Of a stretch of 57,327 nucleotides of DNA, positions 45,514-48,190 are shown in pieces. The stretch is from a virus (Duplodnaviria > Heunggongvirae > Uroviricota > Caudoviricetes): the IMG/VR virus record IMGVR_UViG_3300034357_000765; one strand, written 5' to 3'. The position numbers and the translations under genes were made by a program. Position 1 is the stretch's first letter; every line of letters starts with the position of its first letter. A model generated the notes under the pieces. The model did no database searches. It saw nothing but the letters and a program-made list of their open reading frames with translations, and was not told the origin of the DNA.

Positions 45514-46746
45514 ATGGCAAAAGCAGTAAAAGAAGGAAAGAAATTCGAATTCAGCAAAGTTGGTTCTATATTAGACAACATAGCTAAATCTATTCCAATC
45601 TTAATAGAAAAGGAAATTAAAGAAAAAACATTCATCACAACAGGAGTTTATTTATTAGACGCCGCACTATCAGGAAGATTGCTAGGTGGTGGAGTTGCAT
45701 CAAACAGAATCACGGCATTCGCTGGAGAATCCGGTGCAGGTAAATCGTTCATCGCTTATTCAGTATCAAAGCACGCACAGAGAGCCGGATATTCGGTAAT
45801 CTATATCGATACAGAACAAGCGATTGACTTAGAAGACTTACCAAAGTTTGGAATCGACAACTCTTTGGAAAAGTTCAGATTAATCAGATCTAACAAAGTA
45901 GAAGATGTAAACATGTTATTGACTCAGTTGATAGATGATTTGAAAGAACAAAAGCTTGCAGGATTTGAACTGCCTAAACTAATGATTGTATTAGACTCTT
46001 TAGGTCAAATGGCAAGTAACAAAGAAAAGGCAGATTTATTGAAAGGTGATATCAAACAGGATATGACTAAAGCAAAAGCATTAGGTTCTATGTTCCGTTC
46101 AATCAACACAGACTTAGGATACTTAGATATTCCAATGATTGTATGTAACCACACTTATCTAACAATGGACCTTTTTCCACAAGAGAAATTAAAAGGTGGT
46201 AATGGTTTGTTATACTCTGCATCAGTAATCGGCTTTATGTCTAAATCAAAATTGAAAACAGGTGAAGAAGATGATATGGACTTAGGTCAATCAGGAATCT
46301 CTGTATTGTTCAAGACTGCAAAAAACAGAATGGCCAAACCTAAGAAGATTAGATTTGACATCTCTTTCGCGAATGGTATGAATCCATACACAGGATTGGA
46401 TGCCTTCTGCAGACCAGAGTATATGGATCAGATTGGAATCGCTAAGGGTAAAATGGATGTAAACAAAGCCACTGGTGAAATGACTTTTGTACCTGGAGGA
46501 AACAGATGGTATGTATCACACCTAAACAAATCAGTTACTACAAAACAACTATTCTCACAAGAGGTTTTCACAACAGGCGTCTTAGATAGAATGGCACCGA
46601 TTGTAAACGACTACTTTAGATTCAAGTCATTAGACGAGATCGAAGAGGTAGAAAACGAATTCAACAAGATAGTTGGAGAAGATGATGAAGAAGATGACAC
46701 AAATGGCTTCACAGATGCTACGGACGCAGGAGACCTTTTTGGATAG
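45514..46746 (+). CDS. recA: RecA/UvsX recombinase, 410 aa
   Basis: TTGVYLLD..LSG, AGESGAGKS, IDTEQA, IVLDSLG, NHTY, KGGNG..YSAS. Confidence 0.88.
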   Translation: MAKAVKEGKKFEFSKVGSILDNIAKSIPILIEKEIKEKTFITTGVYLLDAALSGRLLGGGVASNRITAFAGESGAGKSFIAYSVSKHAQRAGYSVIYIDTEQAIDLEDLPKFGIDNSLEKFRLIRSNKVEDVNMLLTQLIDDLKEQKLAGFELPKLMIVLDSLGQMASNKEKADLLKGDIKQDMTKAKALGSMFRSINTDLGYLDIPMIVCNHTYLTMDLFPQEKLKGGNGLLYSASVIGFMSKSKLKTGEEDDMDLGQSGISVLFKTAKNRMAKPKKIRFDISFANGMNPYTGLDAFCRPEYMDQIGIAKGKMDVNKATGEMTFVPGGNRWYVSHLNKSVTTKQLFSQEVFTTGVLDRMAPIVNDYFRFKSLDEIEEVENEFNKIVGEDDEEDDTNGFTDATDAGDLFG

Positions 46747-46801
46747 ATAGTAAGAGAAAGTCGAAGGGTACTTTAACCCTAAAAAATAAAAATGAATAAT
46801 T

Positions 46802-46972
46802 ATGCAAGAAATCTATGAGAACTTGAAAACATTATGGGAGCAATTTGATGCTAATCATAATAAAACGACTAAAAAATCTAACGCTGACGCAAGAAAAGCA
46901 TTAGGAGAGATTAAAAAGTTGGTTACTACTTACAGAGCTGCTTCAGTTGAGTCTGAAAAAGTTGCTAAGTAA
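46802..46972 (+). CDS. Hc1/Bacteroidota histone-H1-like small protein, 56 aa (missing from the ORF track)
   Basis: MQEIYENLKTLWEQFDANHNKTTKKSNADARKALGEIKKLVTTYRAASVESEKVAK; ARKA..EI.K....YR.AS.E pattern. Confidence 0.62.
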   Translation: MQEIYENLKTLWEQFDANHNKTTKKSNADARKALGEIKKLVTTYRAASVESEKVAK

Positions 46973-47000
46973 TAAACTTATTATATAGCTAACTATATAA

Positions 47001-47105
47001 GAGTATGTTTTCCTTGTAGTCATAAAACAAGGTGGTGGAGCCGAAAACAAAGATCTTAATAAAGATTTGGCCCAAACCCTCTCCTTTTAAAGAGAGGGTT
47101 TTTTG
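47001..47105 (+). ncRNA. candidate structured small RNA with its own terminator
   Basis: GC-rich island: CCTTGT/ACAAGG hairpin, TGGT linker, GGAGCC/GGCCC stem, then AAACCCTCTC/GAGAGGGTTT plus T-tract; no plausible ORF. Confidence 0.45.
47074..47104 (+). terminator. intrinsic terminator
   Basis: 10-bp stem followed by a T run. Confidence 0.85.
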
Positions 47106-47124
47106 TTTATTGAAAAATAATATA

Positions 47125-47132
47125 TATCTTTG
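47125..47132 (+). promoter_or_regulatory. Bacteroidota-type promoter -7 box TATCTTTG
   Basis: TTTG 19 nt upstream (47102-47105). Confidence 0.7.
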
Positions 47133-47148
47133 TAAAAGAAATAAAGTA

Positions 47149-47211
47149 ATGAGAGAATTTAATAACAAAATGATTTTGCATGAACAAAACAGTCAACGAC
47201 TGAGTTTATGA
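47149..47211 (+). CDS. putative attenuator leader peptide MREFNNKMILHEQNSQRLSL, 20 aa
   Basis: First ATG after the promoter; stop lies 20 nt before a terminator; 3' end can pair with the terminator 5' arm. Confidence 0.5.
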   Translation: MREFNNKMILHEQNSQRLSL

Positions 47212-47231
47212 TATTGTATTCAACGATATTT

Positions 47232-47262
47232 AAACCCAGTCTTTATTAAGGCTGGGTTTTTT
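47232..47262 (+). terminator. conditional terminator of a putative attenuator
   Basis: AAACCCAGTCT/AGGCTGGGTTT plus T run, 20 nt before the next ATG. Confidence 0.8.
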
Positions 47263-47281
47263 GATTTTAAAAAATAAAGAT

Positions 47282-47449
47282 ATGGAAATGACTATTTACA
47301 AGTATATGAAAGATGGCAAGTTGTACATGTTTCATACCGTCGAAAAAGAGAACGGGAAAAAAGAAATATTGGCGATACCAGTTAGACATGACGGAAAGCC
47401 AATAGTGAACTGTGACATAAAGGATTTTGTGCTGCACTCAATGGATTAA
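47282..47449 (+). CDS. hypothetical protein, 55 aa
   Basis: ATG 47282 preferred to the TTG in the ORF track. Confidence 0.6.
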   Translation: MEMTIYKYMKDGKLYMFHTVEKENGKKEILAIPVRHDGKPIVNCDIKDFVLHSMD

Positions 47450-47466
47450 AAATAAAATAAAAAGAT

Positions 47467-47619
47467 ATGGAATTAAAAGAAAAGATAATATCAAAGGAAG
47501 TGATGAGCGGAAACTTGGAATCAAGTTACGAAATCCTTAGGATAAAGAAAAAGAAGATAAAGAAAAAAGCAAAGAAAAATATTTTTAAATCGCTTAAAAA
47601 ATTGTTAAAGAAGAAATAA
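47467..47619 (+). CDS. Lys-rich basic microprotein, 50 aa (missing from the ORF track)
   Basis: MELKEKIISKEVMSGNLESSYEILRIKKKKIKKKAKKNIFKSLKKLLKKK. Confidence 0.5.
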   Translation: MELKEKIISKEVMSGNLESSYEILRIKKKKIKKKAKKNIFKSLKKLLKKK

Positions 47620-47636
47620 TTTATTATATTTACACT

Positions 47637-48158
47637 ATGAAAGTAATATTTTTGGATAACGATGGAGTAATGTGCTTATCTACAGAGTGGGGCGGTCGCG
47701 ACAAAAAGATTAAGAAATGGAAGCTTTCTAATCCTGGAGATCCTGGATACGTAAACGATCCAAAGATACCGGCACATATAAAAATGGACAACTTTAACTC
47801 AAAGGCAGTTAAAGTCTTAAACGACATATTGACAATAACTGATGCTGAGATTGTAGTATCTTCTGATTGGAAGTTGCATTGTACACTAGAGCAGTTACAG
47901 GATATGTTTATCAAGTACGGAGTTTTAAAAGCACCGATTGGGAGTACACCTAATCACGTTTTAAAGTCTATGGACGAACTTGAAAGCACGAGAGTAGCCG
48001 AAATATCGGAATGGCTTTCGAGTCATCCAGACGTAGAGAAATGGGTAGCCATTGACGATTTGGATCTTAGTGCTTTACAATGTTTCGTTCACACTAAGAG
48101 AATGAAAGAAGGAATCAAACAATCTGGCATAAAAGAGCAGATTTTAAAGTTCTTATGA
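47637..48158 (+). CDS. HAD domain of the Swiss-Army-knife RNA-repair type, 173 aa
   Basis: KVIFLDNDGV, IVVSSDWK, WVAIDD. Confidence 0.8.
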   Translation: MKVIFLDNDGVMCLSTEWGGRDKKIKKWKLSNPGDPGYVNDPKIPAHIKMDNFNSKAVKVLNDILTITDAEIVVSSDWKLHCTLEQLQDMFIKYGVLKAPIGSTPNHVLKSMDELESTRVAEISEWLSSHPDVEKWVAIDDLDLSALQCFVHTKRMKEGIKQSGIKEQILKFL

Positions 48159-48190
48159 TAACATAAGAACTTTTTTCATATATAAAAGAT

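Follow-up and report, generated by a model that had tools for sequence, protein, structure and literature searches.

Does the translation of a 20-codon open reading frame (ORF) decide whether the three genes behind it are transcribed? This question is raised by positions 47102-47265 of the window, i.e. the whole stretch of DNA analysed (57,327 nucleotides, nt), which is part of a 150-kb IMG/VR virus record (IMGVR_UViG_3300034357_000765). An earlier note on this DNA had described the unit as a leader-peptide attenuator responding to translation arrest. The analysis confirms this observation and supports the interpretation in part. According to its alignment with related sequences, the unit appears to be an Ile/Gly tRNA-array attenuator without its cargo, re-used for protein genes; this descent is the point missed in the earlier note. 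The favoured reading, held with a little more than even confidence, is that the unit is a functional ribosome-mediated attenuator derived from this type, that it gates the three-gene operon and that it acts as a generic sensor of translation lag.

The RecA/UvsX-like protein of the record is 83-84% identical to its counterparts in LR745206.1 and LR756502.1 (uncultured phages of 635 and 642 kb, respectively). Phages of more than 634 kb have been assigned to the Mahaphage clade, for which Bacteroidetes hosts are predicted (PMC7162821). An alternative genetic code was ruled out: table 11 leaves frames of up to 2400 amino acids (aa) open. The 150-kb record was scanned for further units made of a mini-ORF, a terminator and a promoter box, and the unit at 47102-47265 is the sole credible case. 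Loci of related sequences are designated by L numbers.

The unit and its alternative folds

The promoter, the 20-codon ORF and the terminator before the next gene, as listed in the earlier note, are all present (Table 1). The -33 TTTG of the promoter is provided by the T-run of terminator 1. The promoter was labelled according to the Bacteroidetes consensus; the pattern TTTG-N17-21-TAnnTTTG is found 8 times in the window vs 2.6 +/- 1.7 times in shuffles. A near-copy of the -7 box and of the bases downstream of it (TATCTTTGTAAAA.AAATAAA) precedes the start of a real gene (56305) by 23 nt. Transcription would start at about 47137-47139, i.e. about 10-12 nt before the ATG of the leader, which is predicted to be a translatable ORF. 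The context of this ATG (AAATAAAGTA-ATG) is like that of neighbouring real genes, which have the same AAATAAAG context. A 59-aa in-frame ORF starting with GTG (47032-47211) was dropped as a gene, since it would span terminator 1 and the promoter.

Table 1. Features of the candidate attenuator unit, the genes behind it and the leaders of tRNA modules in LR745206.1
Feature	Location (a)	Strand	Description (b)
Terminator 1	47074-47106	+	Intrinsic; AAACCCTCTCC...GAGAGGGTTT and T-run (hairpin 47074-47101); 10 pairs, 5 GC; closes the preceding unit
Promoter	47102-47132	+	TTTG 47102-47105, N19, TATCTTTG 47125-47132; Bacteroidetes-type -33/-7 layout
Leader ORF	47149-47211	+	20 codons and TGA (47209-47211); peptide MREFNNKMILHEQNSQRLSL
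Region 1	47179-47197	+	CATGAAC...CAGTC; pairs with region 2 in the full-length fold
Region 2, antiterminator strand	47198-47208	+	GACTGAGTTTA; within codons 17-20, includes the rare CGA and CTG
Hairpin 2	47212-47230	+	ATATTGT-ATTCA-ACGATAT, 7 bp; enclosed by the antiterminator helix
Region 3, terminator 5' arm	47231-47241	+	TAAACCCAGTC; partner, region 2 or region 4
Region 4 and T6	47250-47265	+	GGCTGGGTTT, 3' arm; T6 at 47260-47265
Gene 1	47282-47449	+	55-aa beta-rich protein, first behind the attenuator
Gene 2	47467-47619	+	50-aa Lys-rich protein, no family match; syntenic in L226 and L228
Gene 3	47637-48158	+	HAD phosphatase, HAD_SAK_2 (PF18143, 85 bits), N-terminal DNDG motif; syntenic in L226 and L228
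Leader MTTTQQIQQQQINQTD	LR745206.1		Three tRNA-Gln behind
Leader MKTKLKYKR	LR745206.1		Four tRNA-Lys behind
Leader MKTINNTSKSSSRSSSMSEIRLYS	LR745206.1		Ser/Arg-rich; Arg-ACG and Ser behind
Leader ..SYESYYEE..	LR745206.1		Tyr and Glu behind
Leader ..HKNFSKSHKWF..	LR745206.1		His, Phe and Trp behind
Leader ..APVNPQPQDQDP..	LR745206.1		Pro and Asp behind
Leader MKNLNNISIAVIGNGAGAIREWLSYGI	LR745206.1		Ile-TAT, Gly-TCC, Met and Gly-TCC behind
a Numbers alone are positions in the window.
b Regions are numbered in their order along the transcript; 1:2, 2:3 and 3:4 refer to the helices that they form.

The terminator (47232-47259) has 12 pairs and an energy of -16.6 kcal/mol; it is followed by T6, and the next ATG is at 47282. 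The pairing of 47199-47207 with 47232-47240 (8 of 9) that the earlier note reported is real and extends to 10 of 11 pairs (47198-47208 with 47231-47241), with hairpin 2 inside. The duplex between region 2 and the terminator arm has an energy of -11.2 kcal/mol vs -4.7 +/- 1.2 in dinucleotide shuffles of the upstream sequence, of which 1 in 2000 is as good. Folding of both conformers gave nearly equal energies: -15.1 kcal/mol for 2:3 with the enclosed hairpin and -16.6 kcal/mol for 3:4. Only one of the two folds can form at a time, and region 2 lies in the last codons of the ORF, so the geometry of ribosome-mediated attenuation recognized in the earlier note is present. The minimum-energy fold of the full-length RNA (z = -4.0) consists of three successive hairpins: 1:2 (47179-47211, -7.9 kcal/mol), hairpin 2 and the terminator. 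CAGTC is common to regions 1 and 3, and GACTG to regions 2 and 4. This four-region layout, in which region 2 is first held in the 1:2 hairpin, is shared with trp-type attenuators.

The effect of a ribosome was simulated by masking, i.e. by footprint geometry on the folded truncated transcript. When the transcript ends before region 4, which is its state during synthesis of the terminator, and bears no ribosome, the 2:3 antiterminator is the minimum-energy fold. It survives A sites up to codon 13 (47185); with the A site at 47188-47194 (codons 14-16) or further along, CGA, CTG and the stop included, it no longer forms. Because masking spares or destroys the antiterminator in this way, a lagging ribosome is predicted to favour read-through and a ribosome at the end of the ORF to favour termination. 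The latter is what the earlier note had proposed for a ribosome reaching the stop. Its proposal that a stalled ribosome permits read-through would hold for stalls within about codons 2-13 and fail for CGA and CTG. As for an absent ribosome, the truncated transcript does prefer the antiterminator, but the 1:2 hairpin (-7.9 kcal/mol) forms first and the full-length RNA keeps the terminator.

CGA (47197-47199) and CTG are codons 17 and 18 of the leader. Both are rare: per 1000 codons, CGA occurs 0.8 times and CTG 1.7 times, and they make up 3% of Arg codons and 2% of Leu codons, respectively. CGA had been noted as uncommon and AGA as dominant, and AGA indeed accounts for 86% of Arg codons. A role of these two codons as the sensor was rejected: they belong to the antiterminator strand, and a pause on them would mask this strand and favour termination. 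Their identity is set by the RNA pairing, since relatives show TGG CTG AGT or AGA CTG AGT at this place.

Rfam gave no match at gathering score over the whole window. The permissive scan of 47140-47270 gave matches of <=22 bits only, all far under their gathering scores.

Relationship to tRNA-array attenuators and conservation

Pieces of the unit turned up inside tRNA clusters when complete relatives were searched at the DNA level. In LR745206.1, a promoter, a mini-ORF and a hairpin, with a T-tract in most modules, stand before almost all tRNA sub-arrays; hairpins or T-tracts end 5-20 nt ahead of the first tRNA. The leaders encoded by the mini-ORFs use the amino acids that the tRNAs of the following sub-array carry (Table 1). 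The same eight modules, diverged in sequence, are found in LR756502.1. Modules are located at 342380-344050, 365029-366574, 387700-390332 and 406703-408120 in LR745206.1 (loci L041-L044) and at 372930-376193, 388948-391227, 401158-404505 and 421958-423370 in LR756502.1. Each genome has eight codon-matched leader attenuators. Every leader was scored against every array and the assignment was permuted: in both genomes, the true assignment alone ranks first among the 40,320 permutations, with tRNA sets that are incomplete, several tRNA-like sequences of the arrays not being called by ARAGORN. Uncalled tRNA-like sequences with visible acceptor-stem and T-arm motifs are found in LR745206.1 at 342880-342955, 365185-365260, 343845-343935 and 388650-388740 and in other gaps.

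Judged from these sequences, the tRNA-array attenuators of related phages are convincing leader-peptide attenuators and a real regulatory class. No published account of leader-peptide attenuators before phage tRNA arrays was found in the literature.

Some modules depart from the common plan. In the Lys modules (MKTKLKYKR, MKTKRKYKR), the hairpin begins at the stop codon and lacks a T-tract, and its sequence differs completely between the two genomes. Module F of LR756502.1 (about 401158-401555) has an Asn/Leu/Thr/Val attenuator followed by a gene for a protein of about 70 aa, then by the tRNA array; protein cargo behind such attenuators therefore occurs in a tRNA context too. The mini-ORF MQNLNNILLNARTEGDNPCVTEKLC (L229 433-510 and L231 2295-2372, in the IMG/VR relatives G001 and G002) lies upstream of a mixed array of Leu, Met, Glu, Asp, Thr, Asn, Arg, Leu and Gly tRNAs, to which G002 adds Ile-tat; with apparently one codon for each of these tRNA species, the leader seems to be multivalent. 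A box, AAAAGGGA..N6..CTTTTTAATATATA, is found between the host-type promoter and several leaders, and once directly before a leaderless tRNA-Met. Its sites are LR745206.1 364815-364869, 342340-342378, 387660-387699 and 366040-366080 and LR756502.1 389600-389655; it agrees with the phage-specific TTTAATATATA promoter box.

An IMG/VR scan for the terminator sequence gave further Ile-TAT/Gly-TCC modules on huge-phage contigs, with leaders of the form MKNLxNISxxxIAxGAGxxxxWLSYVM. The window unit aligns with the Ile-TAT/Gly-TCC attenuators of nine other huge-phage contigs (family B). Common features: start ATG A.A ... AAT AAC (M-[KR]-x-x-N-N); CTGAGTT antiterminator strand with the same A.C mismatch; AACCCAGTC...GRCTGGGTTTTT terminator; 55-aa gene as a neighbour; stop-to-terminator distance of 21 nt in the window vs 20-28 nt in the family. 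Differences: about 14 nt, including all Ile/Gly/Ala control codons, are missing from the window; its leader has 20 codons vs 23-27, and one Ile with no Gly or Ala vs 3-5 Ile and 3-5 Gly; a 1-nt insertion (an extra T) moves its stop to TGA; its cargo is three protein genes, whereas that of the family is tRNAs. No tRNA gene was found in the window, in the 150-kb record or within 1.5 kb of the unit in window-type relatives. Arrays of 23 and 35 tRNAs are found in close relatives whose HAD gene is 80% identical.

Eight further distinct units of the window type were obtained by a metagenome scan and by look-ups via the 55-aa protein. Their order is the same: terminator 1, promoter, leader, hairpin, terminator, 55-aa gene, Lys-rich gene and, where the contig reaches it, HAD_SAK_2. 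The window-specific RNA pattern has no match in IMG/VR and 18 matches in metagenome contigs, including the window-type clade; matches of the L209, L216, L217, L219, L220, L222, L224 and L225 types were discarded as unrelated chance hits. At the DNA level, 46700-47700 has no match in the phage collection. Terminator 1 is present in L208, L210, L211, L213, L214, L226 and L228. The promoter is retained in six relatives; L212 has a TATTAATATGA-type box instead, and in L226 two inserted genes stand between the promoter and the leader.

The leaders of the relatives are MREFINKTILLEQNSLRLSL, MREFNNRMILLEQDSQRLSL, MREFNDRMILLEQNSQRLSL and MREFNNNMILREQDSQRLSL, and the 19-codon MREFNKKIVLEQSRFWLRQ in L226. 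Start, stop and length are kept in seven further distinct sequences, and L226 differs by an in-frame 3-nt change; start, frame and stop are thus intact in all nine sequences (window and eight relatives). Pairwise identity of the leader and attenuator is 83-94%; that of the third codon positions in the neighbouring gene is 63%. Within the leader, identity at codon positions 1, 2 and 3 is 0.96, 0.88 and 0.89, with no excess of change at the third. It follows from this lack of codon-position bias that what is conserved is the RNA and its being translated rather than the peptide.

Conservation of the pairing in relatives had been named beforehand as a test of the attenuator. The pairing is kept, with compensatory changes: of the 17 sequences compared, which include both types, 15-17 retain the core pairs and 14 the central A.C mismatch, and TA/AT and AT/GC changes occur at two flanking positions. 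The antiterminator is the minimum-energy fold of the truncated transcript in nine of nine clade members and is energetically balanced with the terminator. Hairpin 2 shows 93% pairwise identity in the clade, with changes mostly in its loop. The inner CAGTC/GACTG stem of the 1:2 hairpin is kept in all clade members; its outer stem is mismatched in most. The window type is not a one-off relic, since eight relatives keep the unit with its start, frame and pairing.

Proposed mechanism and rival explanations

Under the favoured reading, transcription would begin at the promoter and a ribosome would load on ATG 47149. A ribosome keeping pace to codons 14-20 or to the TGA would cover region 2; the 3:4 terminator would then fold, and termination at about 47265 would release a leader RNA of about 125 nt. 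A ribosome lagging or stalled within about codons 2-13 would leave region 2 free when region 3 emerges; the 2:3 antiterminator would then form and RNA polymerase would read into the operon. No promoter motif is read from the sequence in the interval between the terminator and the ATG at 47282. The operon, having no such motif of its own, would depend on read-through. Because the leader has no run of a single amino acid, it would report general decoding speed or ribosome availability rather than one tRNA; general lag of the leading ribosome is the best candidate for what it senses. The sequence elements, the alternative folds with their energies, the homology to the tRNA-gating family and the conservation are observed; that translation decides the fold in vivo, the direction of the response and its physiological trigger are inferred.

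Leader-peptide attenuation is a textbook mechanism of amino-acid operons. The E. coli trpL, hisL, pheL, thrL and ilv leaders resemble the window unit in having a promoter-proximal short ORF with 1:2, 2:3 and 3:4 alternatives, a region 2 that overlaps the end of the ORF and an intrinsic terminator just before the first structural gene; in both, the position of the leading ribosome sets the predicted outcome. Unlike them, the window unit has no codon run for a single amino acid, precedes non-biosynthetic genes and is carried by a phage whose host is of Bacteroidetes type; neither sequence nor Rfam relates it to them. The vmlR, bmrCD and lmo0919 leaders (Term-seq) are leader-ORF attenuators of antibiotic-resistance genes that sense translation stress: ribosome-targeting drugs are the trigger, and ABC-F or efflux genes of Firmicutes are the targets. 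They share with the window unit a short ORF without amino-acid signature, at which a stall in the right place would flip terminator and antiterminator. They are not homologous to it, and the cargo of the window unit is phage genes.

Several points weigh against the favoured reading. In the full-length RNA, the terminator fold is always thermodynamically preferred, and the switch therefore relies on an assumed order of co-transcriptional folding. The leader has no control-codon signature: eleven different amino acids are found in codons 5-20 and none is enriched. An amino-acid run defines the amino-acid-specific subclass of attenuators, not the mechanism itself. Seven of the 20 leader residues vary within the clade. 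The L226 unit has a weaker antiterminator (-7.2 kcal/mol; 34 of 500 shuffles as good), a weaker terminator (-10.6 kcal/mol) and a leader without a promoter of its own. Six window-type relatives were found with a pattern that fixes CTGAGTTTATG and AACCCAGTC, i.e. part of both strands; bias-free tests of the pairing are provided only by L226 and L228 (found via the protein) and by the family-B set (region 2 outside the pattern). Finally, in the tRNA-array modules, complementarity between the leader and the terminator arm reaches p < 0.05 in only 6 of 16. It is strongest in both F modules and in module H of LR756502.1 (combined p = 3.5e-5 over 16 modules) and is not detectable in the remaining modules by the arm definition used, which is crude.

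It is unlikely, but best placed among the alternatives, that the unit is a relic, i.e. a fixed, leaky terminator by which expression of the operon is kept constantly low and for which translation of the mini-ORF no longer matters. The loss of about 14 nt with the control codons, the lack of an enriched amino acid, the absence of tRNA genes from the record and from the neighbourhood of any relative, and the weakening of both helices in L226 are all consistent with a relic. However, the leader is far more conserved than adjacent synonymous sites (83-94% vs 63%), region 1, the 5' half of the ORF and hairpin 2 are conserved though a plain terminator needs none of them, start, frame and stop are kept through an in-frame indel, and the balance between antiterminator and terminator energies persists across the clade. 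Conservation thus weakens this explanation.

Rather doubtful is the more specific proposal, close to the counter-defence switch of the earlier note, that the unit is inducible and senses when the tRNA pool has been damaged. Host defences, such as anticodon nucleases or the depletion of tRNAs, or else shut-off would slow translation of the leader and cause read-through into the operon as a counter-defence. The codons at which such a delay would act (2-13) are mixed: Arg-AGA, Glu, Phe, Asn, Lys, Met, Ile, Leu, His and Gln. A counter-defence role of the operon is possible. Should damaged RNA be what the cargo (HAD_SAK_2 phosphatase, small protein associated with tRNA islands) acts on, the unit would offer the phage a simple means of detecting attacks on translation and of responding to them; if the tRNA-damage proposal is true, a sensor of tRNA supply would have been re-used as a general trigger of counter-defence.

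Alternatively, the unit could be a stand-alone gene of about 125 nt, encoding a 20-aa peptide or a trans-acting small RNA, with incidental read-through; this is improbable. A strong promoter and a strong terminator do surround a highly structured RNA (z = -4.0) of high nucleotide conservation. There is also precedent: in PMC6614838, the attenuator-derived rnTrpL of Sinorhizobium is described as a trans-acting small RNA, and terminated attenuator RNAs as able to work in trans. The peptide, however, is not conserved as a protein (7 of 20 residues variable, no third-position excess), the downstream genes have no promoter motif of their own, homologous units run straight into tRNA genes 5-20 nt past the T-tract, and no Rfam family matches. 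This explanation is weakened by the way in which substitutions are distributed and by the missing promoter motif downstream.

A chance origin, with mini-ORF and pairing accidental in an AT-rich spacer that holds a terminator, is extremely improbable: short ORFs are common in AT-rich DNA and sigma-70-type promoter matches in the region are no commoner than in shuffles, but the duplex (1 of 2000 shuffles as good), the fold (z = -4.0), the homology to nine family-B leaders and eight window-type units and the compensatory changes stand against it, and conservation already contradicts it.

If the favoured reading is right, the unit would represent an evolutionary step in which a tRNA-gating attenuator lost its cargo and codon signature and yet, placed before protein genes, continued to be selected for in one clade of huge phages from freshwater. 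This suggests portable modules that phages re-use to couple gene expression to translation performance. Comparison of the window type with the tRNA type would be a natural test of what control codons contribute.

The operon and neighbouring elements

The operon behind the attenuator has three genes (Table 1) and is probably ended by a terminator-like hairpin at 48146-48173. The 55-aa protein has no match in Pfam, PHROG or Atlas, and the protein-pattern search of IMG/VR with it gave none. Its AlphaFold2 (AF2) model is beta-rich (pLDDT, i.e. predicted local distance difference test score, 76) and has no PDB match below E = 0.4; weak look-alikes are small beta-barrels only. Homologues are found within a few kb downstream of the Ile/Gly attenuator in both complete relatives: at LR745206.1 368791-368946, directly before tRNA-Gly-GCC, and at LR756502.1 392021-392173, about 0.8 kb after tRNA-Ala. 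A further homologue is located between tRNA genes, directly before tRNA-Gly-GCC (Logan contig; L227 2257-2418). The proteins form a small family of about 51-59 aa with invariant D-G-x-L-Y ... A-x-P ... C ... F, which recurs in or beside the tRNA arrays of huge phages.

The name of the HAD_SAK_2 family reflects an association with RNA-repair proteins. The earlier note had placed an RNA-repair-type HAD gene under the control of the leader. This link stands within the clade (L226, L228) but not beyond it: HAD homologues of L006-L014 have other upstream neighbours and no leader, and a general tie between leader and HAD was rejected.

About 500 nt upstream of the HAD homologue in L006 and L008-L014, the TATCTTTG box is found with the ATG of the next gene 4 nt later (TGTATCTTTGATATATG), which would imply leaderless or nearly leaderless mRNAs there.

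A structured element (47008-47106) lies just upstream of the attenuator. It comprises a hairpin CCTTGT...ACAAGG, an invariant GGTGGTGGA, a GNCCC box that can pair with GGT, and a terminator. It is also present at L003 8198-8300, L004 7618-7712, L226 3218-3322 and L228 1146-1246; the window and the 635-642 kb relatives share it in conserved form despite a different preceding gene. Its sole Rfam match is a weak PyrR-site (30 bits vs a gathering score of 54).

Further upstream, a 56-aa protein encoded at 46802-46972 matches Hc1 (chlamydial histone H1-like, PF07432; 28.8 bits). Its gene adjoins the RecA/UvsX-like gene and is kept in LR745206.1, L226 and L228.

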